Source of the DNA: a virus
Reading direction: 5' to 3' (one strand)
IMG/VR virus record: IMGVR_UViG_3300031280_000001
Span: 1-54,855 of that record
Length of the DNA stretch: 54,855 nucleotides
Shown here: piece after piece, positions 3,938-52,059 of the stretch
Numbering within the stretch: the first letter of the stretch is position 1
How the letters are laid out: each line of letters begins with the position of its first letter
Notes under the pieces: generated by a model
What the model saw: the letters and a program-made list of their open reading frames with translations, nothing else
Database searches by the model: none
What the model was told of the DNA's origin: nothing
Position numbers and translations under genes: made by a program

Positions 3938-3945
3938 GATTATTC

Positions 3946-5799
3946 TTATTTAATTCGGAATTCTGTAGCAGTACCTTCGTTTAATCCCTTGAGTATATCT
4001 TCCCTTGTCCATTTACCCCCGGCAATAATTTTTTCATACGACACCCATTTTCCCGCTGCGTTTTTTAATTCAAGATCCTCTACTATGTAAGTACCAAGGC
4101 CAGTCTCCTTTTTCCTCTCAGCAAATCCTTCCCTGGCTCGTCTTTCTCGTTTACTTTTAGACCACGCTTTTTGATCCTCTGTAGCCTCTTCCATAGTTAT
4201 GAACTTATTACGTCCACCCTCTTTCCTTGGTTCTAATACTGGAGTTGGAGTCTGCTGTGCAGCATTTCTCACATCATTCCAAACAGCTTTACCATACTGG
4301 GTAGACATTTGACCCATTAAACGCTCTTCCGGTATCATCACTTCAGCGGCTCCACCAAGATCAATAACATCAATTGTTTTCTCTCCATCAGTGGGACCAA
4401 CTACATTAAAGAATAATTTCCCTTTCTTCAGACCTTCTTCCTTACCTGTGTCCGGATCTTTATAATCAATCATAGCTTGAATATCCAATGTACTGGATAC
4501 TTGTAACTTATCTGTAGGATCTTTATACATATTAGTAGGTCTGGCCTTCAACGGAGAATTAAAATACCCGCGTATAACATCGCCCTTCTGAGTTCGGATA
4601 CTAACTATATCATTAGGACTGATATCTATAGAAGTAGCTCTTTTACCTGCGTTAACTGCGGGGAGAGATATTTGATGAGTATCATATTGCCGTTGACCGT
4701 CATCGCTATATTTTGGTATCTTTGTTCCACTGTATCCACGATCAGCGTTTCCAAATAAACCAAATGATTGATTTATACTTCTCTGTCTTTCAGCCATCTC
4801 CCTACGGACGGCTGTAACAGTCTTATCCTCTGTCTGCTTGATACCAGCCCTAAACTGCTTACTAAATATAGCCTTCGCTTTTGGATCACTTTCCAAATAA
4901 GGATATGACTGTAGAGCATCTTCTACTAACATATCTTTTTCATCATCAGTGTAAAACCCTTCTTGCTGAACTCGCTCTAATACCTTATAAGCATCAGTTG
5001 ATAATTTAGCATTCTCTGTTATGGTAGTTGTTACCCTACTTTTAATCTGGCCTAGAGACGCTGTAACGGCGTCATTAATGCCGGTATAAGCTTGGAATTC
5101 ACCAACAAATTTATTTAATTCCTCAATACTTTTCGTTCCAAGATTATCGTGATTATGAATAAAAGCCGCAGCTTTTTGAACAGCGTCATCATTAACGTAA
5201 TTCTCTGCCGAATTAACGGCTTTGGCAAGTATATCCATAGCTTTGGGGGCCAATTGGTTATACATCCTGGCATATGTCTGATAACCTCTGATCATATTCT
5301 TAAACCCGGGATCATACTTGGTCAGCATTCTAGCCTTAGTATAATCGCCATCTAGTTCATGAGCCTTCTCATCCAGATAAGTATTAATGTTTGTTTGCAA
5401 TTTAGCATTAAATTCATCCTGGGCTAACGGATTTACCAACTCTATGTATGCATCAAGGGCCTCATTATTGGCCGGCCCAAACATCGCAAATTCTTTAACG
5501 GCTGCATCCTGCTCAGCTTTGCGTCTAGCTTCCAACATGCCAATAGGTATAAGACCCTGATTAGCAACGAATATAGGAATATTACCCAACGACTTACTTC
5601 CGAATGTGCCGGCCTGTAAAGGTCTATCTGCACTTGGAAAATAAGTACTTTTTGCTTGAGCGCCTGGCGAAGGGGCCTGAAAACTCCTTTGTAGTTTATC
5701 AATATAGGATGCATCAGACTTCGTTAATTCACTCCTGGACATACTATAATTACTTGTTCCACCTTCTTTTACTACGCTCGGATTTTTATTTTCTGACAT
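3946..5799 (-). CDS. Putative internal virion/ejection protein (617 aa)
   Basis: Long helical Ala/Gln/Lys-rich ORF; position between the pilot-like gene and the giant protein. Confidence 0.5.
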   Translation of the reverse strand: MSENKNPSVVKEGGTSNYSMSRSELTKSDASYIDKLQRSFQAPSPGAQAKSTYFPSADRPLQAGTFGSKSLGNIPIFVANQGLIPIGMLEARRKAEQDAAVKEFAMFGPANNEALDAYIELVNPLAQDEFNAKLQTNINTYLDEKAHELDGDYTKARMLTKYDPGFKNMIRGYQTYARMYNQLAPKAMDILAKAVNSAENYVNDDAVQKAAAFIHNHDNLGTKSIEELNKFVGEFQAYTGINDAVTASLGQIKSRVTTTITENAKLSTDAYKVLERVQQEGFYTDDEKDMLVEDALQSYPYLESDPKAKAIFSKQFRAGIKQTEDKTVTAVRREMAERQRSINQSFGLFGNADRGYSGTKIPKYSDDGQRQYDTHQISLPAVNAGKRATSIDISPNDIVSIRTQKGDVIRGYFNSPLKARPTNMYKDPTDKLQVSSTLDIQAMIDYKDPDTGKEEGLKKGKLFFNVVGPTDGEKTIDVIDLGGAAEVMIPEERLMGQMSTQYGKAVWNDVRNAAQQTPTPVLEPRKEGGRNKFITMEEATEDQKAWSKSKRERRAREGFAERKKETGLGTYIVEDLELKNAAGKWVSYEKIIAGGKWTREDILKGLNEGTATEFRIK

Positions 5800-5816
5800 G
5801 ATTTTAAATTTTTATC

Positions 5817-6572
5817 CTACATTGGAGTAGTAGAAGTGATTCCTCCACCGCCGCCTCCAAACATAGGTGCTACATTCTGTACGAGACCAGGCAGCTCGCT
5901 TAGAGCCTGCATATTCATCATATTCCTATTCTGGAACATAGCCGAAGCAAATTGAGCATAATCGGCTTTGGATTGAATGGCTTCCCATAAATCTACATCA
6001 AGCGCCCGTTGCGATTCTACTGAGCCTTTTTGGTATAATGCTCTCATCACATTCATAAGTTGCTGGTTGTATTCAGTTCTCTGCGATCCAGTCATTCCGA
6101 GTAGCTTGTTAATATTCTCTCCCATTTGTATACCAGACTGTTTCATGAATGACATGGCCATCGCTGGACTGCTATACTTCATTCCAACAGTGGCTTGTTG
6201 AGCACTGGTCCTCTCCAGCAAATCCTTGGCCGTCTGGAATTCGGGAGTCATTCCTGTCTCCACCATCCTTTTCTCTCGTCTGAGCTCTCTTCCAAAATCT
6301 GCAAAACCTGGATCTGGTATTGGGGTTAAAGCAGTTTCTCTGGCTTGAGCAAAAGAGGACTCTGAGGATTTAAGATCTTCATAAGCAGATTTAGCTTTTC
6401 CTCTTCCGCCGAAAAATCCTACAATGGCCCCAATTCCGGCGCCTATACCGGTACCTAAACCGATACCTATAGGACCACCAAGTGAGCCTATAGTGGCTCC
6501 AGTGGCGGCTCCTGATACGGCCCCAGCGCCGGCTCCCTTCCAACTTTCATGAGCAATGTTAATGTCTGGCAT
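5817..6572 (-). CDS. Putative DNA pilot/ejection protein
   Basis: Gly/Ala-rich hydrophobic N-terminus (GAGAGAVSGAATGATIGSLGGPIG) followed by a helical Met/Gln-rich body, typical of podoviral ejection proteins. Confidence 0.55.
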   Translation of the reverse strand: MPDINIAHESWKGAGAGAVSGAATGATIGSLGGPIGIGLGTGIGAGIGAIVGFFGGRGKAKSAYEDLKSSESSFAQARETALTPIPDPGFADFGRELRREKRMVETGMTPEFQTAKDLLERTSAQQATVGMKYSSPAMAMSFMKQSGIQMGENINKLLGMTGSQRTEYNQQLMNVMRALYQKGSVESQRALDVDLWEAIQSKADYAQFASAMFQNRNMMNMQALSELPGLVQNVAPMFGGGGGGITSTTPM

Positions 6573-6581
6573 GGCTTTAGT

Positions 6582-6887
6582 TTAATATTCTCTTGAGTCC
6601 ACTCTTATTACCCGACTAAGTCGGTCAGCAACTCTAAATTTAAGCTGCTTATGGGCAGGGATGGTATCACCAGTCATGTTTGACGGACGCGCACCCTTCT
6701 GCGCAAAACAAAAGCGCCCCAAGGTTTTTAATTCTACTTCATCTTCATTCAGCAAGTGTTCCTTAACTATCGCAAGCAACGAATCAAACATAAAGTCACA
6801 TTGGACCTTTGTAATCGTCGTATACTCAGACAGTTCGTTAACTAGCTGCAATTTTGTAATCTTTGTTGTTTTCCTAGTTTTCATCAC
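6582..6887 (-). CDS. HU/IHF-family DNA-binding protein
   Basis: TKLQLVNELSE...EVELKTLGRF...ARPSNMTGDTIPAHKQLKFR matches the HU/IHF pattern; IHF-like genes occur in crAss-like tail modules. Confidence 0.85.
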   Translation of the reverse strand: MMKTRKTTKITKLQLVNELSEYTTITKVQCDFMFDSLLAIVKEHLLNEDEVELKTLGRFCFAQKGARPSNMTGDTIPAHKQLKFRVADRLSRVIRVDSREY

Positions 6888-6936
6888 GTTTTACTTTATC
6901 TAACACATCAATATGCAATATACAATTAATTTACCA

Positions 6937-9900
6937 TTACTCAATAATATTATTAAAGCCTACACGGATCGCCTTCACTTCGTATGCGGTAGTTAAGGAA
7001 CCATCAAATGTAATCCTAATGGTAAGGTATGGTCCCTGCATTGCTTTAGTATCTTTAGCTCCTGAATCCCTGCGTCCTATATAAGAGTACAAACCCGGAT
7101 TCAGATCCCTTACTACAGGCGGCGTATCTGTATTAGGAGATGATGCACCTGTATCAAATATCATTTCTTTTGGAGTCGCATTTGCATGCAATAAATAATC
7201 AATAAATTCCCAGGATGTATGTAAATCCGGATTAATTACGATATCAATATATGGGTCCATGTTTTCTTCTGAATCACTTAACAGAGTGTATGTACCGTTC
7301 TCAACTGAGTACAGTCTATCAGCCCTGGCTCCAAGAAGATATGGCCATTCATTATATGTAGCCGATTCTTTATTCTTAAATATCATCCTATCATAATCAT
7401 GGGGAAGTTCATGAGTCCAGTTATTCAAAAAGAAATTGAACACATACATATTGCCGGCCATCTCTACCCACAATTCATTTTCCCTTTCATTAAATACTGT
7501 TAATAATGTCGGATAATTTGTACCGTGCGGTAAACCTTTACATACAGCATATAATCTATCTCTCCAATTTGCTATGATATTCCTAACATCATTATTAAAG
7601 AATAGCATAACACCTTTATTATTGACCCATGATAATGCCTGCACAAATTGACCATCCGCCGTCTCCATTACCCCCTCAGATTTACTTCTGGATAACTGAC
7701 TTGGACATCCTACTGCAGTGTTTAACCAGATTTCATCCTGAATAAACTTACCTTCCAAATCTATGAGACCTACCTGCTCCCCAACCGCACCGCGCATGAC
7801 AGTTTTATTAGTAAGAACTAATGCAAGGCCACTCTCTGTAACTGCATATAAATTCCTTCCCTGACCACTCACGGCATCATATAAAATAGTGATCTGTCCA
7901 CGATCCGCTCGCTTTAAATCATAATAATTAATCGGAAGAAATGTTCTCAGGGACGGAGAATTCTGTATCGCCGGATTCTTATCCAGAGAAAAGGCTAGAC
8001 GCTGCCAAAACTTAACCCGCTCTGCATATCCAGCTAAGGGCTTATTAACGGCCCTAGCGGACACATCTTTGGTATAGTCATAGTTGAGCATCTGTGGCGT
8101 TACAAACCCACCACGCTCCCATAACAGGTACTCATCGCCAAATTTATCATAGTAATCACTGTAGACAGCAGCACGAAGATAATAATCCTTTGGTTCCTCA
8201 TCGGTATTTCTAGCTGGGTAACTAGTAGGCCGCTGCACATAATTACGTCTCGGATAAGTATCACCATACGCTAAAATAGTATTTGATTTGCTTTCGCAGA
8301 TAAAACCGAATACCCATTGACGAATATTATCTACAGTAATATTATAATCATCTGGTATTATATCAGAAACAGGTGTTCTTTCATTATCGTACATTGATCT
8401 GGCTTGTACACCCCCGCCCGAAACTGGAGCCTCTTTAGCATGACGCGGAATAAAAACAGCATTATTTACTCCGGATATTCTATAGGTATACCCAGGCATG
8501 GGCCCATTTATCTGTAATTGTTCAGTTGGAGCGTCAGCTTGTATTGAATCAGTAATTTGACCCATACTTTTAGCGCCATTAACTTTATTATCTACAACAG
8601 CATTAAACACTTCACCAACAAATGAATCACCTCCAAATACTATGATTGGACTATTATTATTATACACAACTTTTATCTCATCACCTTCAGGAGGATAGAA
8701 ATTTAAAGTGGCTACAACATCAAATTTAATGGTAACAGGATTCTTCGGATCAACTGTAAAGATAGTGGCCTGCCCATTATTAATCCATGAGGCTGTAATG
8801 GTATACATGCCGTAATAATTCTTACCGTACAGTGTAAAATACCCAGTCCCAAGACCTCCGCCGCTATTAATAGCTGCGCCCCAAGTTGTTATACTACCAC
8901 TAGCTTCAAGTGTTACATCCATCCACCGTTGCCCATTAACCATGATGTATCTCACATCAGCATCAGCAGCGGCTATCTTAGCGGCATGTACATCTTCCGG
9001 ACGCTCATCTACAAGAGCATAAGTTTGACCAGATCCGCCGATTGCGGTTCCTATAATACTCTCAAGTTTCTGATATACGCCGGTATCTTGGTAGCTTTGC
9101 GTATTGGTAGTAAGGATATTAGCATTATTATGTACTATGTTGACTATATAAACAGGCTCATGAAATACTCTGTTAACGTTATCATTTCCTGTAGATTTTG
9201 TCATAGTATCTAATTGTGCGTAAACGGCTGCATCCACCGTTAACTCCAACATATGACTACGACCATCTGAATTACCATATTGCCCACCATCGATTTTTTC
9301 GACGCTGCTGATATCAAACAAATAATCAGGAGATCTGGATGTTATTCCTGCTCCCATATTAGATCCGGCTAATCCCAAGTAGTTCCGCCATCTGCCGAAT
9401 GTCACATGACCAGATCCACGGCCTATTTTAGCCAGCGGGTCCAGGCCATTATAAATATAATTCTCATAAGCAATATTAGCATAGGATAATAAATCCACAC
9501 TGTAACAATTCGGCGCCTCATAAGAACCAGAGAAAGCAGAAGAGTTAAACCCAAGTACGCTAACTAATTGTAACTGATAATCATCTGGATTATTAATGAT
9601 ATCGTCATACAGATAAGCTTTATTACCATAAAATGGATCAATATCAGGGGAATAAAAAGTCAATTTAGATCCCTCTTTTTCAGCCGGGCTTTGACTCCCC
9701 TGTTGAGCAAAAACATAAGTCGCAAGACCTTGCGCCAATACGCGATTAGCCGGCGGGGTGCGTACAATCTTAAAACCCCTTACCCAAGATGGAAGTAGAT
9801 TTGTATTAATACCCGTAAAAGCCCAACCAAGGGACCAAATATGATTATTTAAAGATTGATGAAAATTATAAGTGTGATCATCCATCTGATCACATGGCAT

Positions 9901-11454
9901 ATCAGATCTAAATCCCCAGTCCTTATTATCACCTTTCCCGGCGGGATATAGCGGTTGAAATGAATCAAATGACGCTGAGACGCCATCTACATCTAGCATT
10001 GCAGGTGATCTGGAAGTTCCCGCAGGTTGAGTGTCCTGCCATACACGACTAAATACTTCATAAGCTCTATCCCAGGAATCAGTATCATCGGAATCATAAA
10101 GAGCATACTCTGGTCTTTCATCGGTATAAAGATTGGATAAAACTTCAGAAACCCCCGTCATGGCATCACGCCTATTTGGCATCTGATAATTCTCCAAATC
10201 TGGTATAGGTACAGCAAAAGTTAATCCTCCAAGGTCATCTACACATTGTATTGCGTATCCGAATCTCTCTCCCCTGGTAGAATTCTTTCGATAAACTTGA
10301 TTCCACGTTTTACTAAAACCCTCAAATCCAAGATCCATATTAACCGGCTGAGCGCGTTTACTTTCACTATCTATAATGAATGCATTATCAGATAATGAAG
10401 AAAGATCTCTAGCTTCATATTCAACACCCCCTATAACCAAGCGGCCATCAGTCAATCTGATTGTCTTACATAATTTAATTGCTTGAGATTCTAATTCTGA
10501 AGCTTCATCAAGCGGTAACCAATCAAGTCCATCCTTATCAATAAAATCAATAATATCATAAACCGTTGAGGATATATCAACCGCGGCGCCATCAGCATCA
10601 GCAACCAAGTTAAGATATTCCGGATTAGGACTAAAATCAGGAGATTGCCCAGTGTTATGCGCCGTACGTTTTATCTGCATATAAGCAAATCCAGCTTCGT
10701 TAGTTACACGAAATCTGATTCGTATACCTTTATTTGTTAGCCCACCAGGCTCATCACCAGTAGTAAACACTCCATTCTTTGTATTACCTGGAGTTGTAAT
10801 TACAGCCTCTGTATGAACCGGAATCACAGGAGTAGATGGTGACCAATTTGTGGCATTTCCTTGTGGATCAGTATAACGAACAGCATATGTATATCCACCA
10901 CCAATAAGTCCAGATCCGGCGCCCACATATTCAAGTCCTATAAATTTTGGCTGATTTGTATGGGTTACTAATTGTAACCTATGAGCCTCTGCATCATATT
11001 CCGTAAAGTATTTTTGAGTAGCAAAACTATTAATTACATCGTATAAATCATAATATACGGGTGCAGCCTGGCCGTCGGTTATATACATAATCCCATCATC
11101 CTCATCTATAGCCGCATCAATCATACCAATTCGGGACCCGGGAATGTCTGCGTGTTCTGCTACCTTAGTACCAGAAACGTAAATTGTTTTAACGTATGTG
11201 GATGTGTTATACCAAAACTCTACTACATAGTTCTCCGTTACCCAACTGAATAGACCTGTACAATATTGTGTTGCATCCTCTTCCCTATCTTCGTGAATAA
11301 CATCCCCCGGCGCTCTTTTATAGGTACCGTTAATAGTCCTACGCATCAAGTATGCTTGTCGTATTGAACTGTGATCCGGAACTAAAAGATTCTCATCAGT
11401 ATCTGCGTCTATTCCACGCAAAAATAAATTGGTAATGTATTCTAATGGTTTCAT
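6937..11454 (-). CDS. Large tail nozzle/muzzle (stabilization) protein, 1505 aa
   Basis: Size, beta-rich composition, and position after ring proteins and fibres and before HU and ejection genes, as in crAss-like phages. Confidence 0.6.
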   Translation of the reverse strand: MKPLEYITNLFLRGIDADTDENLLVPDHSSIRQAYLMRRTINGTYKRAPGDVIHEDREEDATQYCTGLFSWVTENYVVEFWYNTSTYVKTIYVSGTKVAEHADIPGSRIGMIDAAIDEDDGIMYITDGQAAPVYYDLYDVINSFATQKYFTEYDAEAHRLQLVTHTNQPKFIGLEYVGAGSGLIGGGYTYAVRYTDPQGNATNWSPSTPVIPVHTEAVITTPGNTKNGVFTTGDEPGGLTNKGIRIRFRVTNEAGFAYMQIKRTAHNTGQSPDFSPNPEYLNLVADADGAAVDISSTVYDIIDFIDKDGLDWLPLDEASELESQAIKLCKTIRLTDGRLVIGGVEYEARDLSSLSDNAFIIDSESKRAQPVNMDLGFEGFSKTWNQVYRKNSTRGERFGYAIQCVDDLGGLTFAVPIPDLENYQMPNRRDAMTGVSEVLSNLYTDERPEYALYDSDDTDSWDRAYEVFSRVWQDTQPAGTSRSPAMLDVDGVSASFDSFQPLYPAGKGDNKDWGFRSDMPCDQMDDHTYNFHQSLNNHIWSLGWAFTGINTNLLPSWVRGFKIVRTPPANRVLAQGLATYVFAQQGSQSPAEKEGSKLTFYSPDIDPFYGNKAYLYDDIINNPDDYQLQLVSVLGFNSSAFSGSYEAPNCYSVDLLSYANIAYENYIYNGLDPLAKIGRGSGHVTFGRWRNYLGLAGSNMGAGITSRSPDYLFDISSVEKIDGGQYGNSDGRSHMLELTVDAAVYAQLDTMTKSTGNDNVNRVFHEPVYIVNIVHNNANILTTNTQSYQDTGVYQKLESIIGTAIGGSGQTYALVDERPEDVHAAKIAAADADVRYIMVNGQRWMDVTLEASGSITTWGAAINSGGGLGTGYFTLYGKNYYGMYTITASWINNGQATIFTVDPKNPVTIKFDVVATLNFYPPEGDEIKVVYNNNSPIIVFGGDSFVGEVFNAVVDNKVNGAKSMGQITDSIQADAPTEQLQINGPMPGYTYRISGVNNAVFIPRHAKEAPVSGGGVQARSMYDNERTPVSDIIPDDYNITVDNIRQWVFGFICESKSNTILAYGDTYPRRNYVQRPTSYPARNTDEEPKDYYLRAAVYSDYYDKFGDEYLLWERGGFVTPQMLNYDYTKDVSARAVNKPLAGYAERVKFWQRLAFSLDKNPAIQNSPSLRTFLPINYYDLKRADRGQITILYDAVSGQGRNLYAVTESGLALVLTNKTVMRGAVGEQVGLIDLEGKFIQDEIWLNTAVGCPSQLSRSKSEGVMETADGQFVQALSWVNNKGVMLFFNNDVRNIIANWRDRLYAVCKGLPHGTNYPTLLTVFNERENELWVEMAGNMYVFNFFLNNWTHELPHDYDRMIFKNKESATYNEWPYLLGARADRLYSVENGTYTLLSDSEENMDPYIDIVINPDLHTSWEFIDYLLHANATPKEMIFDTGASSPNTDTPPVVRDLNPGLYSYIGRRDSGAKDTKAMQGPYLTIRITFDGSLTTAYEVKAIRVGFNNIIE

Positions 11455-11465
11455 AGATATGAAAT

Positions 11466-11515
11466 AAAAAAAAATCCCGCGGGCATGGATATACCCGTAC
11501 CCGTACCCGTGGGAT
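11466..11515 (-). terminator. Rho-independent terminator
   Basis: ATCCCACGGG...CCCGCGGGAT stem followed by a T-run on the minus strand. Confidence 0.75.
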
Positions 11516-11555
11516 CAGTTAATTATACTGGCCACGCTACTTGAGGTAGCTAATC

Positions 11556-12446
11556 TTATGCCTTAACGTCAGCTGTCCTGTTAGTCATATAGAACTTACC
11601 AGCGGCTTTATTATAAAACCCTTCAAGGATATCTTTAGCCGTTGAAGTCTGACTAGGCTCGGTACCTCCAGCAAATTGATACTGGGCGTCCCATGTAATG
11701 GTATGGTTACCATCCGTGACGATCTCAAGCCTTAAATACGAATTGTCCTGCATATTAATAGCTGGACCAATCGTGGTAGGTTCGGAACAAGCCAATTGAA
11801 ATACTCTGGCTATGTCAAGATTAGGAACAAATGTAGCTGCTATAGTACCGTTCAAGTCGCCGGTCAAATTTGCAACAGTTACAATAACTCTTTCAGTTGG
11901 AATAAGGTGCCGTCTCTTAGAAAAACCTAAGAGTGATGCTGGAGCAGTTGTATTAGCAACAGAACCAGCAAGATTACCAGATACGTTTGTAATAGTCGGA
12001 TGAGCAAATTCTTCCCCTGCATTAACAGAGGTGAAAATAAGAGTATCCGTTGAAGCGGTAACAACAATACCAACAGCTAAATATGCATCAGCATGAGCCG
12101 TTACAAAATTAGTATTAGTTTTAGTAAGGCTGGTATCCCAAGTTGCAAGCTTGGTTAAGCCCCCAGCGACAGCTACATTCGCCGTTCCGGAACTACCGGT
12201 TACGGTAATTGTATCAACCTGCTTTACGCTACCGATAACAGTACACTTAATACCCAGAAGGGTTAAAGCGGGCTGATGGGTAACCTGAAAGTCTTCACTG
12301 GTTTCGTCCAAATCGGTATCAAAGGTAGCTACATAACCTACGCCATTAACTGTGACGGCTGCAGTTCCCGAAGTACCGGTAAGAGTTACTGTATCACCAT
12401 CCACGGGGATAACAGCAACTTGATTTTTTTCATTAAATAATTTCAT
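11556..12446 (-). CDS. Tail fibre/decoration protein with repeated Thr-rich beta modules
   Basis: Two VTLTGTSGTA-type modules; C-terminus (TITWDAQYQFAGGTEPSQTSTAKDIL) resembles phage fibre tip domains. Confidence 0.55.
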   Translation of the reverse strand: MKLFNEKNQVAVIPVDGDTVTLTGTSGTAAVTVNGVGYVATFDTDLDETSEDFQVTHQPALTLLGIKCTVIGSVKQVDTITVTGSSGTANVAVAGGLTKLATWDTSLTKTNTNFVTAHADAYLAVGIVVTASTDTLIFTSVNAGEEFAHPTITNVSGNLAGSVANTTAPASLLGFSKRRHLIPTERVIVTVANLTGDLNGTIAATFVPNLDIARVFQLACSEPTTIGPAINMQDNSYLRLEIVTDGNHTITWDAQYQFAGGTEPSQTSTAKDILEGFYNKAAGKFYMTNRTADVKA

Positions 12447-25632: not shown

Positions 25633-26496
25633 ATGAATAAAGCACAATTCAATTTAGAGTTGTATCATAAGATGTATCAACTCTATAAAATTTCTGCTGA
25701 ACAAGGTATCAAATTATATGCAGAATCATTAAGTCATCATTTTGAAATTCCAGATCGTGTAGCTAGATACTATTTTTTTATGGTAGAAAATAATTATAAT
25801 CAAACTACCCAATCTAATAAGATCCAGGGAGAAAATCGTTTGATTATCCCAGATCTTCATAGTCCATTTGTTAAAAAAGGATTTCTTGAACACTGCGTTC
25901 AGGCTTATCATGAATATCAATGTACTAAAGTATCATTTTTAGGAGATATCCTAGATAATCATTTTAGTTCATTTTGGAAAACAGATCCAGATGGACTATC
26001 AGCAAAAGATGAAATAGATTTGGCTATAGAAATTCTTCAACCTTGGTATTCGTCTTTTCCTGAAGCAGAAGTTTGCATTGGAAATCACGACGCCCGGATA
26101 AGACGTCAAGCATTTGATGCTGGCATATCTGAAAAATGGATTAAAAATTATTCTGATGTTATTGAAACTCCTGGATGGATATGGGATGATTATTTTGATC
26201 ATTTTGATGTACGTTATATCCATGGTGATGGACCAGGTGGTGCAACTAATGGAGCTTTCAATAGAATGCTTCATTGGAGAATATCAGTGGTACAAGGACA
26301 TTTTCATACCAGTTCTTATACTCGATGGTCTGTTTCAGAAAAGGATAGATTATATGCTATGCAATGTGGATGTGGTATGGATTACAAAGTTTACGCTGCA
26401 GCATATGGTAAAAAATCTCAAAAGAAACCAGTAATTGAATGTGCCGTTATTTTAGATAATGGTAGAATCCCAATTCACCTCCCAATGTATTTATAA
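25633..26496 (+). CDS. Calcineurin-like metallophosphoesterase
   Basis: PDLH, GDILD, GNHD, IHGD and GHFH motifs. Confidence 0.85.
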   Translation: MNKAQFNLELYHKMYQLYKISAEQGIKLYAESLSHHFEIPDRVARYYFFMVENNYNQTTQSNKIQGENRLIIPDLHSPFVKKGFLEHCVQAYHEYQCTKVSFLGDILDNHFSSFWKTDPDGLSAKDEIDLAIEILQPWYSSFPEAEVCIGNHDARIRRQAFDAGISEKWIKNYSDVIETPGWIWDDYFDHFDVRYIHGDGPGGATNGAFNRMLHWRISVVQGHFHTSSYTRWSVSEKDRLYAMQCGCGMDYKVYAAAYGKKSQKKPVIECAVILDNGRIPIHLPMYL

Positions 26497-26506
26497 TCAG
26501 ACAGTT

Positions 26507-27007
26507 ATGAGTAACGTTAATAAAGCTATAAAGATGGCGGCGGAGAAGGGATTTTCTATTGATAAAGAAGGAAATGTATTCCGTCATGGTAGTCCAATAA
26601 AGCCCTGTTTTCATAAAGGTTATAAGCACTTTAGTGTAGTCATTAGTCCAAACAAACAGATCAGTGTTCCCTTTCATCGATTTCAGGGATATCATAAATT
26701 TGGATTAAAGATATTTAAACCTGAGATAGCTGTACGTCATCTTAATGGGGATAGAACTGATAACTCATGGAATAACATGGGTATAGGTACACACCTAGAC
26801 AACATGAGGGATATTCCTAAAGAGGCTAGGTTACAGGTTGCTACAAATGCATCCCATACCAGATGGCCAAATCAACCAGATGCAGCAGCTATGCTACTAG
26901 ATAAAGAAAATGGGATGCATTGGAAAGACATAGCCAAAAAATACGGTACCAGCAGATCAAATACACATCGTTTATTGGTGAAGCAGCGTAATTTAAAATC
27001 ATTCTAA
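26507..27007 (+). CDS. HNH endonuclease
   Basis: VRHLNGDRTDNSWNNMGIGTHLDN; ATG at 26507 preferred over 26459. Confidence 0.8.
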   Translation: MSNVNKAIKMAAEKGFSIDKEGNVFRHGSPIKPCFHKGYKHFSVVISPNKQISVPFHRFQGYHKFGLKIFKPEIAVRHLNGDRTDNSWNNMGIGTHLDNMRDIPKEARLQVATNASHTRWPNQPDAAAMLLDKENGMHWKDIAKKYGTSRSNTHRLLVKQRNLKSF

Positions 27008-27059
27008 ATAAGTATTGGGTATTGCAATATCCAATATTTTATTGTAGCTTTACAGAAGT

Positions 27060-27459
27060 TCTTTGAGATCGATATTTCGAAACATGTTTGGACCGGGGTT
27101 CGTTGCCCCGCATCTCCACAAAAAGTCCAACCGGTAGCCAAAAGGGGTGAGGATAAGATCACACACCCGGGCGTTTATTCGGCTCTGGCCTTGGGGGATA
27201 ATACGACGCCGTGCAAAAATGTCTATGCTGAGGAGCATGAAGATATACCGCCGGAAGATTCGTATTTTCCCCCCCTGGTACAGGGGAGTAAGTTACAAGA
27301 TTGTAAGATATGGGGATGAATGTTTTGACAGCATGAGAGTAGGGTATCAGGAGAGGACGAAGCTAATTAACCGGCACAAAGGTTATACAACTAATTCCTC
27401 AAGGCCGCTTCCAGGAAGCAGCTTAGCTAGGAGCCTGAGCCCCTTCGGGGGTTTCAGGT
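27060..27459 (+). ncRNA. ssrA: Circularly permuted (two-piece) tmRNA gene
   Basis: The tRNA-like 3' end GGAC-CGGGG-TTCGTTG-CCCCG-CATCTCC-A (27090-27118) lies upstream of the 5' end GGGGATG-AATGTTTTGAC (from 27312). The acceptor stem pairs 7/7 including G3.U70. Tag ORF 27373-27426 reads GTKVIQLIPQGRFQEAA*. Ends in a UUCG hairpin. The 5' boundary of the acceptor piece is approximate. Confidence 0.85.
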
Positions 27460-27472
27460 AAGTTTCTAAAAC

Positions 27473-27985
27473 GTGATAAAAGATTTGAAACCAATAACTG
27501 GATTTGAAAATTATTTAATAGATTGTTCAGGTAAAGTATTTAGCCTAAAAAGCAACAAATACCTGAAGCCCGGTGACAACGGGCGCGGATATTTTAAGGT
27601 AAATTTATGGCGAAATGGAAGGCAGTATACTATAACTATTCATAGATTAGTTGCTCAGGCTTTTCTCCCTAATCCTGATAACAAATCATTTATTAACCAC
27701 AAAGACGGAAATAAACTCAACAATACGGTATCTAATTTAGAGTGGGTGACGCCAGCTGAGAATAATCAACATGCTTATGATATAGGCTTAAGAAAATGGT
27801 CACCGAATTCGGGCCGAAAACTTATTCCTATTAATGTATACGATTATAAAACTGGCGAGTTTAAATCTACCCATGATTCTATAAGTGAAGCTATTGAGCT
27901 TTATGATTTAAATTATGGCGGTGTATGGAGGATGTTACATGGAAAATCGAAACACACAAAAAAATTAACTCTCGCTAAAATATAA
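27473..27985 (+). CDS. NUMOD4-HNH homing endonuclease
   Basis: KPITGFENYLIDCSGKVFS (NUMOD4); IHRLVAQAFLPNP...INHKDGNKLNN.VSNLEW (HNH); NUMOD1-like tail. Confidence 0.9.
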   Translation: MIKDLKPITGFENYLIDCSGKVFSLKSNKYLKPGDNGRGYFKVNLWRNGRQYTITIHRLVAQAFLPNPDNKSFINHKDGNKLNNTVSNLEWVTPAENNQHAYDIGLRKWSPNSGRKLIPINVYDYKTGEFKSTHDSISEAIELYDLNYGGVWRMLHGKSKHTKKLTLAKI

Positions 27986-40748: not shown

Positions 40749-40807
40749 GCCAGTTAACGGGCAGCCTGAAATAATAAGGGCGAAGGGTTCGAATCCCTTT
40801 ACTGGCA
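40749..40807 (+). ncRNA. tRNA-like element 1 (long variant)
   Basis: GCCAGT...AAGGG-TTCGAAT-CCCTT-T-ACTGGC-A. Confidence 0.75.
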
Positions 40808-40832
40808 CGACTTTTAATTAAATACAATTATA

Positions 40833-41039
40833 ATGAAAGACAAATTTAACTTAAATGGCATTGATTACAAGGTAGTTAATGGTTTAGTTTACAAGCAATC
40901 ACAGGGTATATTAGACCCATGTTACAAAGGTGACAGTAGTGTATTGGATGAGTTTTGCAGAATACATAGCTTAACACTATATCAGAGGCCTAAAGGTGTT
41001 CATGCATACGGTAACCAGCACGGATTACGTACGCAATAG
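40833..41039 (+). CDS. Small early protein, paralog of 42144..42320
   Basis: FNLNGIDYKVVNGL...PCYKGDSSVLDEFC...LYQR. Confidence 0.65.
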   Translation: MKDKFNLNGIDYKVVNGLVYKQSQGILDPCYKGDSSVLDEFCRIHSLTLYQRPKGVHAYGNQHGLRTQ

Positions 41040-41080
41040 CCAGTATGGTATCTGCCTGGGTTCGACTCCCAGGCATAGCA
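41039..41080 (+). ncRNA. tRNA-like element 2
   Basis: GCCAG-TATGGTA-TC-TGCCTGGG-TTCGACT-CCCAGGCA-TAGC-A. Confidence 0.8.
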
Positions 41081-41129
41081 CAAATATGTTTAATTATTAC
41101 ATATTATTAGTAATTAATAACTTAGTAAC

Positions 41130-41312
41130 ATGGAACAAAATTATTTGAATTCACTACGTGTGAACCTGGAAGCAGCTGCCGACAGGAAGGCAGTAGAGCG
41201 CAAGGCAGAAGCCAAAGCGCAAAGATTAGCAAAGATCCTGGTCATCGGATTACTATTAACCATTGCCGTAATTGTAATGTTGTTCGGCGATAGCATAACT
41301 AACTGGTCATGA
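41130..41312 (+). CDS. Small protein with C-terminal TM helix
   Basis: ILVIGLLLTIAVIVMLFG. Confidence 0.6.
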   Translation: MEQNYLNSLRVNLEAAADRKAVERKAEAKAQRLAKILVIGLLLTIAVIVMLFGDSITNWS

Positions 41313-41315
41313 TTA

Positions 41316-41355
41316 GCCCTTATGGTACTCCCCGGGTCCGATTCCCGGGAGGGCA
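41316..41355 (+). ncRNA. tRNA-like element 3
   Basis: GCCCT-TATGGTA-CTC-CCCGGG-TCCGATT-CCCGGG-AGGGC-A. Confidence 0.8.
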
Positions 41356-41384
41356 CGACTTTTAATTAATTAATATTTAATATT

Positions 41385-41546
41385 ATGAAAGCAAAAAATG
41401 TGATAAATGAGCATACGGAAAAAATAGCGCTCAAGACTTTGAAAATGAATTCTACCATATGCGGAGTAATGGGTCAAACAAAAGAAGAGGCCATTAAGAA
41501 TTTGAAAGCATTTGGATATTCAGATAAGGAAATTAAATCTATTTAA
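41385..41546 (+). CDS. Small early protein (53 aa)
   Basis: Hand translation MKAKNVINEHTEKIALK...; lies between two tRNA-like elements. Confidence 0.55.
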   Translation: MKAKNVINEHTEKIALKTLKMNSTICGVMGQTKEEAIKNLKAFGYSDKEIKSI

Positions 41547-41558
41547 TTTAATATGAAA

Positions 41559-41601
41559 GCCTGCACGGTATCAGGTCTGGGTTCGATTCCCAGACCAGGC
41601 A
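41559..41601 (+). ncRNA. tRNA-like element 4
   Basis: GCCTG-CACGGTA-TCA-GGTCTGGG-TTCGATT-CCCAGACC-AGGC-A. Confidence 0.8.
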
Positions 41602-41626
41602 CGACGTTTAACCAATTCAAAAAGTC

Positions 41627-42073
41627 ATGAAAGATTTAAATGAAATTTCAGAGATTACAGTTAGTTATTCACCTAAAATAAAAAACAGTGATAGGGCAAT
41701 TATCACATCTAGCCAAAAAGTTTATGATTTGGTTCGTAATAACTGGTCTGAAATAAGTATCAGAGAGGAAATGAAGGTTTTGTTTTTAAACAGGGCAAAT
41801 AAAGTACTTGGTATTTATGAGCTAAGTAAAGGCGGTATTAGCGGTACAGTAGTAGATGTACGACTATTATTTGCAGCTGCATTAAAATCTTTAGCCTGTG
41901 GTATTATACTGATTCATAATCACCCTTCAGGTAATTTAAAGCCTAGCGATGCAGATATAAAAATAACAAATAAAATACGTGAAGGCGCAAAACTTTTAGA
42001 CCTCACTGTATATGATCATCTGATAATATCGGATGAAGGATATTACAGTTTTTCAGATGAGGGTATTATTTAG
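41627..42073 (+). CDS. radC: RadC-like JAB/MPN domain protein
   Basis: REE..VLFLNRANKV...GGISGTVVD.R...HNHPSGNLKPSDAD...DHLII. Confidence 0.9.
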   Translation: MKDLNEISEITVSYSPKIKNSDRAIITSSQKVYDLVRNNWSEISIREEMKVLFLNRANKVLGIYELSKGGISGTVVDVRLLFAAALKSLACGIILIHNHPSGNLKPSDADIKITNKIREGAKLLDLTVYDHLIISDEGYYSFSDEGII

Positions 42074-42116
42074 CCCGTATGGTACTTAGGTAGTGGTTCA
42101 ATTCCACTACCGGGCA
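42073..42116 (+). ncRNA. tRNA-like element 5
   Basis: GCCCG-TATGGTA-CTTA-GGTAGTGG-TTCAATT-CCACTACC-GGGC-A. Confidence 0.85.
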
Positions 42117-42143
42117 CGACATTTAACCAATATTTAATTTAAT

Positions 42144-42320
42144 ATGAAAAGTTTTGATTTTAATGGCCGTAATTACAAGGTAGTGAACGGCTTGGCCCAC
42201 ACTGTAGAGAATAGTATACACGACAGTATAATGGTAACTCCTTGTTACCAGGGAGACAATGTTATGCTGGATGCATATTGTGATACCCTTGGTGTTAAAC
42301 TGTATCAAAGATCAAATTAG
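42144..42320 (+). CDS. Small early protein (58 aa), paralog of 40833
   Basis: Hand translation MKSFDFNGRNYKVVNGL...PCYQGDNVMLDAYC...LYQRSN. Confidence 0.65.
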   Translation: MKSFDFNGRNYKVVNGLAHTVENSIHDSIMVTPCYQGDNVMLDAYCDTLGVKLYQRSN

Positions 42321-42362
42321 CCCGTATGGTACGCGTCCTTGGTTCGAGTCCAGGGACGGGCG
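42320..42362 (+). ncRNA. tRNA-like element 6
   Basis: GCCCG-TATGGTA-CGC-GTCCTTGG-TTCGAGT-CCAGGGAC-GGGC-G. Confidence 0.85.
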
Positions 42363-42401
42363 CAATTATTCCTTATTATTTGTACCTAATATTTTAATAA
42401 C

Positions 42402-42623
42402 ATGCAATTATCAAAAGAAAAATTATGCGAAGCGCTGGAAATATGCGCTGAAAATCACAGTACGCTATTAACTATTAACTCTATTAAAAAAGGTAATATC
42501 GTATCAGATGCTGACTCCTTGATTATTCATAAATGCGTACCGGCAGTAATTAACAAGTTAAAGGATGCTGACTTTATGTTGGGCATGTGTGATCGTGGTA
42601 TGTATGTTGAGTATATCAAGTAA
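42402..42623 (+). CDS. Hypothetical early protein
   Basis: ORF track; flanked by tRNA-like elements. Confidence 0.6.
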   Translation: MQLSKEKLCEALEICAENHSTLLTINSIKKGNIVSDADSLIIHKCVPAVINKLKDADFMLGMCDRGMYVEYIK

Positions 42624-42665
42624 ACCTGTATGGTATGAGCAGAGGTTCGAATCCTCTGCCAGGTA
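42624..42665 (+). ncRNA. tRNA-like element 7
   Basis: ACCTG-TATGGTA-TGA-GCAGAGG-TTCGAAT-CCTCTGC-CAGGT-A. Confidence 0.85.
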
Positions 42666-42782
42666 CAATTTGGCCTATTTGGGTAATACCTAGCATCCAC
42701 TCACTTCGAGATCGTCGCTTAGACGCGCTCCTATGAAGCCGAATTTTTCTAAATTAATATATTTAACTAAAAAACAGTAAAA

Positions 42783-42995
42783 ATGGCAAAAAGAAGAATT
42801 GTTAACAGTAGAAGGGTCGCCAGGGGCAATAAGTCCGGTGGTGGTAAATCCTCTGCTTATACTCAGAAAATCGAGCAGCAAAAGCAGGGCAGGTTCAGCG
42901 ATAAATCTCCTTTCAGTGTTCATGACGGTGGAATTGGCCTGAGTTTGAATGAAACAAACAGACGTAGGTTTAATTTACGTAAAAAAGAGGATTAA
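42783..42995 (+). CDS. Small basic protein
   Basis: Arg/Lys-rich ORF. Confidence 0.55.
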   Translation: MAKRRIVNSRRVARGNKSGGGKSSAYTQKIEQQKQGRFSDKSPFSVHDGGIGLSLNETNRRRFNLRKKED

Positions 42996-42997
42996 TC

Positions 42998-43162
42998 ATG
43001 ACTTATGAAGAAAAAAAGACAATAGCTGACAAGTGGTTGACTAGGGAAGCATTCATGTCCTGGGATGAATTAGCTGATACCAACAGTCTCCATGATTGTG
43101 AAACAGAAGAAGATATCATTGAAGCTTGTGATGAAAGATTATTAACAGATATGATGGAATAG
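42998..43162 (+). CDS. Small acidic protein (54 aa)
   Basis: Hand translation MTYEEKKTIADKWLTREAFMSWDELAD...; possible DNA mimic. Confidence 0.55.
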   Translation: MTYEEKKTIADKWLTREAFMSWDELADTNSLHDCETEEDIIEACDERLLTDMME

Positions 43163-43203
43163 CCTGTATGGTGTAAAGGGGAGTTCGATTCTTCCCTCAG
43201 GCA
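43162..43203 (+). ncRNA. tRNA-like element 8
   Basis: GCCTG-TATGGTG-TAA-AGGGGAG-TTCGATT-CTTCCCT-CAGGC-A. Confidence 0.85.
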
Positions 43204-49385: not shown

Positions 49386-49954
49386 TATCCTACTCTGCTA
49401 TTAGGCAAGGCTTCAAGTCCATCCCAGTATTTAAACATCTGTTCTTCCACAGTCTTCTTGGTAAACCTACCTTTGAATTGGTACCATTTTCTTCTCCATT
49501 TCATATCAATCCAGGTCCTGCGGAACCACTTATCAAACAGACTTTTCTGATACTCTTCTTTGGCTGCCTTAATCTGTTCCTTCTCCAGGTTCAGATAATA
49601 CTCAGCCCTATCCATGAATGCCTCAGGACGTAGTGTAAACCTAGCCCGGGGACGTTTGTTGAATCTTGTGCATAAGGTTGTCCACCGATTATTGTAATAC
49701 GACACTTTGTCCGCAGCCTCTTGGCCATCAGGATCTTCCAACTCAGCCCTTGTTTCAAGCATCCTCTGTACCATACCATCCAACTCATTGAGATACTTCT
49801 TCTTCAATCTCTTCTCTTCCCTGCCCTCTGGACCGTTCGGGGCTGTGTGATTAATACTACCAGGTTTATGCAATTCCTTGATTACGCCGTCCCTTGCTTT
49901 AGTGATGTGATCGTCCAGAATTTCTTCGGGACTTCTTTCGATTGTATTTTCCAT
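49385..49954 (-). CDS. Hypothetical protein
   Basis: ORF track. Confidence 0.55.
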   Translation of the reverse strand: MENTIERSPEEILDDHITKARDGVIKELHKPGSINHTAPNGPEGREEKRLKKKYLNELDGMVQRMLETRAELEDPDGQEAADKVSYYNNRWTTLCTRFNKRPRARFTLRPEAFMDRAEYYLNLEKEQIKAAKEEYQKSLFDKWFRRTWIDMKWRRKWYQFKGRFTKKTVEEQMFKYWDGLEALPNSRVG

Positions 49955-52059
49955 TATGTTTTTATTTTAGTTGCGCCATTCTCATCAGCTATTGCAGTCA
50001 TCGTAGATGAATACAAGCTATCGATATGCGGCGAGTGTGTAATAATATAAATTGATTTGCCTTCTGCAACTTTCATCCTTATAAGGTCAAAGACTGCTGC
50101 TTCACCTTTCTCATCCAGTCCTTCGAATACCTCATCCATGATCAGTATGTTGATATTACTATCAGCACTGACTAAGTCATGCATGGCAAAGATCAGAACA
50201 ATATCTAACCGCTGTTTCTGACCTCCGGAGAACTCTTTATAATCCTTGTTGAATTTCTTTCCAACAGAACATACGGTGGTGAACGGCTTAGAAGCTTTGG
50301 TCAGATCGACACTAAACTCAATGGATACCCCCAGACGAGCTGAATACTGTTTTACGTATTCATTCAGATTATCCAGCATAGCTTTAAAGACAAAGGATGG
50401 AAGACCAGCACTGATAAATCCTTTTTTGGTCCACCATTGGTGCAGATTCATCTCATATTTAATATCCTCTAATGCGTCCACTATACCGGTCAGCTCTTTC
50501 TCTAAGTTCTCAGATATATCAATTAGCTGATCAACAGTCTGCGAAAATTTAGGCGGTTCTTCCTTCTGCGCAATTTCCAAAGATGGTATCATTACTTCAA
50601 TCTGACCCTCCAGTATCTTAATGTTATTCTCATTTTCTTTAACCTTCTCGGTTTTCTTAAAAATTTCATTGGCTTCAGTATCTAAGGTTTCTTCTTTCTT
50701 TGTCCCCTCTGTGAATAGGCGTTTAATCTCCTGGCCATCCTCTTCAGCTTTATCATATTTATCCTTGGCTGTTTTGGCGGCCTTTCCAGCGCTCTCTAAC
50801 TCTTTAATCGTCTCTTCCCGGGTGATCATCAACTCTGCTAAATTAGATAATGGTGGTTCTTCTAGCTTCTTTGCTTCCAATTTGGCATTCACGACTTCCA
50901 TTTGGGGAGTATATTTATCCCGTATTGAATTTGTTACAGCTGTAACATTCTCCAGGGGAAGTTTCTGACCGCAGGCGTAGCATTTATCCTTTACTTCATT
51001 TATCTCCTTAGCTTGCGCATTTAACAACCTTTGCAGCTCCTGCTTCAGAAAAAATACAGCTTCAGCCTTATCAATCCCCCACTTGTCGCCCCGTTTCTTC
51101 TCGATATTGACATTAGTTTCAGCTACTACATCAGCCCGGGAGGCAGTACCTGCTCTCTTTCCGGCTTCTATATGTGCATTGTATGGGGCTTCCAGAGTCT
51201 TCTCCAGGGCATTGTATTGCCGCTCCAATTCATCCATCTCCGTCTTAAGGGCCCTATATGCTATTTCATCCCACTTCGCCACGTCTACGTCAAGCTCCTC
51301 ATTTTCTTGTCTATACATGGTAACATCCCCCCTGACATCAGCGATTTCTTCAGAGATCTTATTACAATTCTCTATTTTCTTTGCACCAAACTCCTCCAAT
51401 ATCCTAACCTGTTCATTAATTTCAGTTTTGATAGTTTCAAGCTGACTGTTAATAGTCTGCTGTTCTCCTTCTGCCTTCAGACATTCGCCAGACAACTCTA
51501 TAAGTTTTGCGCCGGCTTTAGACTTAGCATCATTAATGAATGCTGTCTCGAACAATCTTTCAAATAAGTCTCTTTTATCCTTATTATCAGATTCCACAAG
51601 CTTAGACATTCGCTGTCCAAAAAGAATGGATGACATGAAAGTCTGTGAATCAATACCCAAAAGTTTAACAATCTGCGCCTGGACATCCTTCTTGTGGACA
51701 CCGGCCTGATCCTGGCCTCTGATAGCCAGGGCGTCTCTACCTATTCCTTCTCCTCCTGACCATGCGATAGTTCTAACTATTTTATATTCAGTGCCATCTA
51801 CCTCAATTGTGACTTCTACATAAGTTCCACGGAAAGCTTCAGTGCGAGTATCTTCCCAGGTTGGGATCTTTTCAACTGTGGTATCCTTCAGGTTAGTACC
51901 ATACAAGCACCACACGACGGCTTCAAATAAGGTGGTTTTCCCAGCCCCGTTCTCTCCCTTTACAAGGTTAAGGCCCGGACGGTCCAGATTTACCTCAGTA
52001 CGCTCAGCGAGACTGCGAAACCCTTCTACGACGATGTTTTTTATCTTGATCTCTTTCAT
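49954..52059 (-). CDS. sbcC: SbcC/Rad50 (gp46-like) ATPase
   Basis: GENGAGKT, long coiled coil with CYAC zinc hook, FSGGQ signature, MDEVFEGLD, ITH. Confidence 0.92.
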   Translation of the reverse strand: MKEIKIKNIVVEGFRSLAERTEVNLDRPGLNLVKGENGAGKTTLFEAVVWCLYGTNLKDTTVEKIPTWEDTRTEAFRGTYVEVTIEVDGTEYKIVRTIAWSGGEGIGRDALAIRGQDQAGVHKKDVQAQIVKLLGIDSQTFMSSILFGQRMSKLVESDNKDKRDLFERLFETAFINDAKSKAGAKLIELSGECLKAEGEQQTINSQLETIKTEINEQVRILEEFGAKKIENCNKISEEIADVRGDVTMYRQENEELDVDVAKWDEIAYRALKTEMDELERQYNALEKTLEAPYNAHIEAGKRAGTASRADVVAETNVNIEKKRGDKWGIDKAEAVFFLKQELQRLLNAQAKEINEVKDKCYACGQKLPLENVTAVTNSIRDKYTPQMEVVNAKLEAKKLEEPPLSNLAELMITREETIKELESAGKAAKTAKDKYDKAEEDGQEIKRLFTEGTKKEETLDTEANEIFKKTEKVKENENNIKILEGQIEVMIPSLEIAQKEEPPKFSQTVDQLIDISENLEKELTGIVDALEDIKYEMNLHQWWTKKGFISAGLPSFVFKAMLDNLNEYVKQYSARLGVSIEFSVDLTKASKPFTTVCSVGKKFNKDYKEFSGGQKQRLDIVLIFAMHDLVSADSNINILIMDEVFEGLDEKGEAAVFDLIRMKVAEGKSIYIITHSPHIDSLYSSTMTAIADENGATKIKT

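Follow-up and report, generated by a model that had tools for sequence, protein, structure and literature searches.

The gene at positions 27058-27458 of the phage contig described here is a genuine permuted tmRNA. It is a variant of the published phage two-piece type and not its first example; what is new is the combination of a layout that lacks PK1 with a long tag of 16-17 codons, and the presence of a structured RNA in the spacer. We put the probability at roughly 0.85 that this is a working two-piece tmRNA gene, that it belongs to a minimal, PK1-less family carried by uncultured phages, and that its spacer (the IVS, defined as the part absent from the mature RNA; PMC11915505) has received an inserted two-domain RNA. 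The window, by which we mean the whole stretch of 54,855 nucleotides that was analysed, is a complete IMG/VR record, a linear phage contig with a CheckV completeness estimate of ~66%. The gene lies within it in a non-coding stretch of ~465 nt between two HNH endonuclease ORFs, and is laid out as follows:

26459-27007, + strand: HNH endonuclease ORF, upstream context (PHROG HNH families)
27045-27052, + strand: candidate Bacteroidota-type -7 promoter box, one mismatch to TAnnTTTG
27058-27458, + strand: permuted tmRNA gene, a circular permutation with acceptor piece, IVS and coding piece in that order
27058-27118, + strand: acceptor piece (Rfam alignment, pair table, covariation)
27058-27062, 27071-27077 and 27083-27090, + strand: P2 5′ strands, in the acceptor piece
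27094-27110, + strand: T-arm with a T-loop-like heptaloop, adjoining the 3′ acceptor strand
27111-27117, + strand: 3′ acceptor strand, followed by the discriminator A at 27118
27119-27311, + strand: IVS, 193 nt (from the piece boundaries), expected to be excised by RNase Z-type and RNase P cuts
27123-27192, + strand: IVS element domain A, a near-invariant base helix round a variable, covarying hairpin (consensus fold, model R1)
27193-27273, + strand: IVS element domain B, a long hairpin with a G-run/C-run outer helix and strongly covarying inner stems
27229-27234, + strand: domain B apical loop UGAGGA, invariant
27293-27306, + strand: tentative small hairpin just 5′ of the presumed RNase P site (single-sequence folds; varies among relatives)
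27312-27458, + strand: coding piece, with the 5′ acceptor strand, P2 3′ strands, linker, tag frame and two 3′ hairpins
27312-27318, + strand: 5′ acceptor strand, 7/7 pairs including G3.U70
27329-27335, 27342-27348 and 27354-27358, + strand: P2 3′ strands, in the coding piece
27083-27090/27329-27335, 27071-27077/27342-27348 and 27058-27062/27354-27358, + strand: the three P2 cross-piece helices (pair table)
27373-27426, + strand: tag reading frame, with resume codon GGC at 27373, 17 codons (GTKVIQLIPQGRFQEAA) and stop TAG at 27424-27426
27407-27419 and 27434-27458 (terminal), + strand: 3′ hairpins of the coding piece (sequence)
27473-27985, + strand: HNH endonuclease ORF, downstream context (phrog_59, E 1e-45)

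The initial annotation had read this stretch as a phage-encoded permuted tmRNA, and the elements that it listed (the T-arm, the acceptor strands with their seven pairs, two cross-piece helices, the resume GGC, the tag and a hairpin) all proved to lie where it had put them; the P2 helix 27058-27062/27354-27358 is a third that it had not listed. Both a full-length match to the Rfam model of permuted tmRNA and covariation among relatives bear out the reading. RF04321 (tmRNA_permuted; Rfam release 15, cut-off 47 bits) matches 27058-27426 on the plus strand over model positions 1-213, with 48.6 bits and an E-value of 1.4e-6 for the whole window. The tRNA-like domain of the model (PMC11915505) is matched at full length, with the acceptor stem, the T-arm and P2 formed between the pieces, whereas the PK1 hairpin is deleted and the IVS is ~160 nt longer than in the model. 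The lineage-specific Rfam models that the initial annotation had also proposed as a check stayed below their cut-offs: RF01849 (alpha) scored 17.9 bits, RF01850 (beta) 17-20.7 bits and RF01851 (cyano) 12.7-15 bits, matching the core only, against cut-offs of 50, 84 and 70 bits.

Using the portal and capsid-like proteins, we found four related contigs, one of which (G004) is a complete genome of 83 kb with terminal repeats. RF04321 matches each of the four over its full length at the syntenic site, with 43.5-45.8 bits. Counting a more distant complete genome (G006), where RF04321 scores only 19.1 bits, five related phage contigs carry the same permuted gene; these scores, set against the cut-off, place the clade at the edge of the model. 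ARAGORN, the other check proposed, gave a divided answer, since the window copy was not called but those of the complete genomes G004 and G006 were, as permuted tmRNAs; in all it rejects three of five close variants. Shortening the spacer in silico gave no call either, so that spacer length is not the cause of the miss. The D-loop analogue of the window tmRNA is short. Two further relatives, G005 and G008, lack both the tmRNA and the IVS element, and cultured-phage BLAST searches with the gene, the surrounding 20 kb and the portal protein gave nothing useful and no similar cultured phage. A standard tmRNA, or a co-linear 3′ end downstream (which the initial annotation had named as evidence against permutation), was found in none of the related genomes.

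In a five-sequence alignment, the 31 core pairs are formed in 94.3% of cells and 12 of them are changed on both sides, statistics reached by none of 500 shuffles, and when the partners are slid by 1-3 columns the pairing falls to 36-53%. All pairs of the acceptor stem (7), the T-stem (5) and the proximal P2 helix (7) are kept in all five sequences, and 11 of these 19 are compensatory. The acceptor stem forms seven of seven pairs in the five variants, three of them being switched on both sides in one relative (L010), and the alanine identity pair G3·U70 is invariant. Four of the five stem pairs of the T-arm covary, as do four of seven in proximal P2, which is 100% paired; distal P2 is kept in three variants and formed in another way in L007 and L008.

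The tag frame, downstream of which the break lies, is also conserved. It is open in all variants, with 16-17 codons in the clade and a one-codon indel as the only difference in length, and in every variant the tag has Gly first, Val at position 4 and a C-terminal Ala-Ala followed by a stop. The tag had been called unusually long from the window alone, and this stands, as those of 88 mainly Bacteroidota tmRNA genes extracted via the 5′ motif have 9-10 codons. The remark that no PK1 was obvious holds too: P2 and the resume codon are just 14 nt apart, the alignment to RF04321 drops the PK1 hairpin of the model, and the resume codon falls at nt 62 of the coding piece rather than at about nt 96 as in Bacteroidota tmRNA genes. 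PK1 is also missing from other phage members, which marks a minimal subtype and leaves membership of the permuted tmRNAs intact. As noted before for the window, no smpB was found there, nor in the complete 83-kb relative.

The flanks of the gene vary. HNH homing-endonuclease ORFs flank the tmRNA on both sides in the window genome only: the upstream ORF is missing at this site in G001 and G002, with only a distant version in G004, and the downstream ORF is an insertion relative to G004, G001 and G002, in which the next gene follows the tmRNA directly. In G001 and G002 the order is metallophosphoesterase, tmRNA and next ORF with nothing between, and G004 has a 51%-identical copy of the downstream HNH gene at another location. 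A promoter scan gave no sigma-70 promoter above chance and no terminator was detected by scan; the candidate -7 box has an exact TAnnTTTG at the aligned site in L009 and L010. In L007 and L008, where there is no promoter-like box, the 3′ end of a tRNA-like unit (T-arm and acceptor strand) lies immediately upstream of the acceptor piece; the first bases of their acceptor pieces pair with the coding piece, so that processing of this upstream unit may define the 5′ end.

Phage two-piece tmRNAs have been published before, making up 53 of 133 unique tmRNA forms in cultured, mostly marine phage genomes, where they fall by host into the alpha, gamma(beta) and cyano lineages, the three classical ones (Buchholz 2022, PMC9004378). 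The genes of OM43 phage Melnitz, pelagimyophages and cyanophages resemble ours in having the acceptor piece upstream, often lie near tRNA genes, were detected by ARAGORN and come with no reported phage smpB (PMC9004378). Their tags begin with A, in contrast to the Gly resume codon, the 16-17-codon tag, the probable Bacteroidota host and the structured IVS of 174-245 nt seen here, and Melnitz has a glutamine riboswitch at the 3′ domain, whereas Rfam models found no riboswitch in the window gene. For Bacteroidota, Table S2 of the 2025 database paper PMC11915505 counts 24,380 standard and 48 permuted instances; the tmRNA database (97,179 sequences, figshare 28430909) also has 79 phage entries. 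The initial annotation had known of no described example; that holds for Bacteroidota phages, for which we found no published case, but not for phage two-piece tmRNAs as such (PMC9004378). We likewise found no published Bacteroidota- or phage-specific permuted lineage and no structured spacer element in the literature that we covered, which was incomplete.

The host phylum, given as Bacteroidota from the outset, is probably that, judging from the absence of SD motifs, the enrichment of TAnnTTTG and the likeness of the tmRNA to those of Bacteroidota at its resume context and 3′ end. Of 52 phage genes, only 4 have an SD-like motif in front, which equals the 10% background, and the leaders are A-rich; TAnnTTTG occurs 81 times in the window against 55 ± 7 expected. 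Low SD use fits cyanobacteria as well. The capsid-like protein was not found in 401 Bacteroidota genomes, a search without a control because the intended control phylum turned out to be the same genome sample. The one-piece tmRNAs of Bacteroidota (with tags such as GENNYALAA) and that of phage phi38:1 have in common with the window gene the 5′ motif ending in TTTTGACAG, the resume context A-A-C-N followed by GGC GAA AA, the G-E-N start of the tag, a 3′ end at which CCA is not encoded, and the bases immediately preceding the T-arm. They differ in being co-linear, with PK1-PK4, a resume codon near nt 96 rather than 62 and, in the bacteria, tags of 9-10 codons. A 5′ motif probe against one genome per prokaryote species matched Bacteroidota in 73 of the 80 genome titles listed; the likeness of the window in 5′ motif, resume context and G-E-N/K start is to be read with the comparison set having been picked by the 5′ motif itself, which is also present in phage genes with A-N-D-N tags.

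The tmRNA of the cultured Cellulophaga phage phi38:1 is an unannotated one-piece gene with 87.6 bits on RF00023, a Gly resume codon and a tag of ~30 codons; it lies at L426 1172-1533 (KC821614.1, ~26803-27164, minus strand) and overlaps the hypothetical gene gp041. A Bacteroidota-type tmRNA was also seen in a genome titled Clostridium sp. MAG (G010, locus L121). The phylum-level sample round it is that round Mangrovibacterium, and the MAG may therefore be mislabelled or misbinned.

The window gene is part of a wider phage family. Gapped pattern scans of IMG/VR for TTTTGACAG plus GGCGAAAA, which gave mostly chance matches and were filtered by script, left 17 contigs of 5 kb to 316 kb. Fourteen of them are above the RF04321 cut-off, with scores of 57-78 bits, and nine of the fourteen are marked as permuted by ARAGORN. 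Two of the three contigs below the cut-off appear to be chance matches in coding sequence, and the third (L415) is an uncertain tmRNA-like locus. At least 12 other IMG/VR phage genes, all with short spacers (~10-50 nt) and readily detected by ARAGORN and Rfam, have the same breakpoints as the window gene. The family splits into genes with proteobacterial-type A-N-D-N tags and genes with G-start tags, the window clade falling in the latter group, and PK1 is missing throughout except in the GC-rich L424. BLAST searches with family genes matched only the universal T-arm. Close in kind are six IMG/VR genes (L197, L258, L412, L420, L423 and L425) that, like the window gene, combine these breakpoints with G-start tags ending in Ala-Ala and no PK1. 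They differ in having an IVS of ~15-20 nt without the element and, in several cases, tags of 10-11 codons (that of L420 is longer); they score 63-78 bits on RF04321, and ARAGORN calls all but L420.

Other RNAs were seen on contigs from these scans. L274 carries a GOLLD RNA (221 bits) at 8737-9117 and, 1.7 kb downstream at 10790-11201, a one-piece phage tmRNA (70.8 bits) with a short P2-to-resume distance and a possible 33-codon tag. L415, a 100-kb viral contig, has a Hatchet ribozyme (87.5 bits) at 925-1058 and a RAGATH-9 RNA (122 bits) at 2537-2704, just upstream of its tmRNA-like locus.

Two histories of the permutation come into question. The initial annotation had proposed an independent permutation in a Bacteroidota phage; this is not demonstrated, given that the breakpoints and layout are common to other IMG/VR phage genes, those with A-N-D-N tags included. 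We give about even odds to descent from a minimal tmRNA that was already permuted and is carried from phage to phage, with its tag adapted to the current host. On unrelated contigs of 5 kb to 316 kb, genes with a short IVS agree with the window gene in the start of the acceptor piece, the breakpoints and the ends of the IVS; one architecture serves both the A-N-D-N and the G-start tags; and the gene has a patchy distribution in the phage clade, in which G005 and G008 are without it. Against such descent, a similar layout could equally come from common constraints and convergent loss of PK1, and the AT-rich spacer ends may merely reflect the preferences of RNase P and RNase Z.

Independent permutation from a one-piece Bacteroidota-type tmRNA, of host or phage, would add a fourth lineage beside alpha, beta and cyano, and we regard it as the somewhat less likely alternative. 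Repeated independent permutation is accepted in the literature (PMC3978253). The mostly Bacteroidota matches of the 5′ motif, the resume context and tag start, and the fact that a Bacteroidota phage, phi38:1, has a one-piece tmRNA that resumes at Gly and encodes a long tag are as expected from such an origin. G-start tags and this resume context occur in Bacillota too, however, and the A-N-D-N-tag phage genes share the 5′ motif and are laid out alike, without PK1. All three lineage models score below their cut-offs, which would fit a separate origin, but the A-N-D-N (alpha-type) phage genes fail the alpha, beta and cyano models as well, so that the failure is uninformative on ancestry. We found no related phage with a one-piece precursor, and the tRNA-like core, whose sequences had moreover been selected by the probe motif, is too short to resolve a tree.

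The spacer of the window clade contains an element of ~150 nt, in two domains, with a 22-nt block that is invariant while the stems covary. The IVS measures 174-193 nt in close relatives and ~245 nt in G006, as against ~10-50 nt in the other true family members. A first consensus fold, made without G006, had 38 pairs, 14 of them compensatory. A covariance model of domains A and B (R1), built from four sequences with G006 left out, then matched G006 at full length with 62 bits (E ~1e-12), between the halves of its diverged permuted tmRNA; G006 is a complete genome whose capsid-like protein is 68% identical. With G006 added, the alignment is 94.8% paired with 21 of 39 pairs compensatory, figures that none of 500 shuffles reached and that compare with at most 56% paired in slid registers, although this alignment was fitted to R1 and is biased somewhat toward the structure. 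Within domain B, 15 of the 22 pairs of helices 5-6 have changes on both sides, and the outer helix is changed on both sides in G006. There is no Rfam match to the element. The IVS is not protein-coding: the lengths of its indels do not divide by three, and in relatives the ORF that overlaps it is broken across frames; the 104-codon ORF at 27147-27461 was ruled out as a gene, its frame not being conserved in relatives.

Searches of viral and metagenome collections for the invariant block gave chance matches only, and the element is known inside this gene alone; six unrelated loci matching a 19-nt invariant spacer block were chance matches within coding sequence. Two further pairings were considered and rejected from the alignments: a tertiary pair in domain B between loop and bulge (GAGGA with UCCUC) does not hold in the sequence of the window itself, and complementarity between the apical loop and the tag region was found in two variants only.

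One short-spacer gene (L197) suggests how the element arrived. It has the same acceptor-piece start, the same first IVS bases after the discriminator and the same breakpoints as the window gene with a spacer of 16 nt, which makes it look as though the element was inserted after the gene had been permuted. Other cargo is found in such spacers: a complete tRNA (anticodon TGC, Ala) lies within the permuted tmRNA spacer of L418 (4603-4911, minus strand) and of L421 (4397-4717, plus strand), and the published cases are a tRNA-Ala in GCA-2688965 sp002688965.2, which the authors called unique, and, in HGM16780, a repeat element (PMC11915505). These also place an RNA-coding unit between two tRNA-type processing sites; the window cargo is unlike them in being a two-domain structured RNA, not a tRNA or repeat, and in being conserved across a phage clade.

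The pattern of conservation suggests that the element is under selection of its own and argues for a role of its own. An element without function, whether a selfish insertion or a compact fold that keeps a long spacer from hindering the acceptor stem, seems to us rather unlikely. It would sit well with the relatives whose short IVS works without the element, with the other spacer cargo just described, including the 2025 database cases, and with the HNH genes inserted round the same gene. A mere spacer should not, however, keep a 22-nt invariant block and an invariant apical loop amid covarying stems, nor should it persist in a genome as distant as G006. We tentatively entertain the further possibility that the spacer element is a new class of structured phage RNA that uses the RNase Z-type and RNase P cuts for its maturation, so that the locus would yield three functional RNAs, together with a fourth, Bacteroidota-derived origin of permutation for the G-tag phage genes.

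The anatomy suggests how processing, charging and tagging would proceed. A single transcript would be cut by the host tRNA 3′-end enzyme after A27118, where CCA is not encoded (as in the phage's five tRNA genes) and would then be added, and by RNase P before G27312. The acceptor piece of 61 nt (64 nt with CCA) and the coding piece of ~147 nt would be held together by the acceptor stem and the three-part P2, and the same two cuts would free the spacer RNA, with its ~150-nt element, as a separate molecule with defined ends. Host AlaRS would charge the RNA with alanine via G3.U70, and host SmpB (assumed, since no phage smpB was found) and EF-Tu would deliver it to stalled ribosomes. Translation would resume at GGC and add a tag of 18 residues (the charged Ala plus 17 encoded) whose Ala-Ala end would target the protein to host proteases; with E-A-A or V-A-A as its last residues, in place of the L-A-A usual in Bacteroidota, the tag is of uncertain strength as a degradation signal. 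PK1 is important in E. coli tmRNA, and its loss counts against a working gene here. A decoy RNA that occupies host SmpB or ribosomes without productive tagging would account for the missing PK1, the reduced D-loop analogue and the absence of phage smpB, and has a counterpart in the CDS-less tmRNA-like RNA of mycobacteriophage DS6A, reported as an inhibitor (PMC11915505), but it is very improbable, because the tag frame, length, first residue, Val at position 4 and Ala-Ala plus stop are conserved in five diverged variants with a clean one-codon indel, which would be unexpected if the frame were never read.

A link between the tmRNA and tRNA-like minihelices overlapping stop codons, which might generate non-stop mRNAs, was also considered. 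With free-standing T-arm hairpins outside tRNA genes as a crude proxy, clusters occur in the window at 40783-43179 (8 per genome), in G004 at 49792-51326 (7) and in G005 at 3545-12096 (9), against fewer than one in shuffles. The array of G005 comes without a tmRNA, and G006 combines the tmRNA with just two free T-arms, so that co-occurrence does not support the link.

The permuted tmRNA is a textbook case of a repeated RNA gene rearrangement and is said to comprise three main lineages in bacteria, a picture that is widened by a PK1-less family in phages whose tags are Bacteroidota-like. The genes of this family are minimal natural constructs for asking which parts trans-translation needs. Such genes are probably under-annotated in viromes, as ARAGORN misses three of five close variants and Rfam scores lie at or just below the cut-off; the unannotated one-piece tmRNA of phi38:1 is one example. 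That a conserved, structured RNA sits inside the spacer suggests a second use of tRNA-type processing sites, namely the expression of unrelated RNAs, and the spacer tRNAs of L418 and L421 and the cases in PMC11915505 point the same way. The conserved structured spacer element is the part most worth following up.
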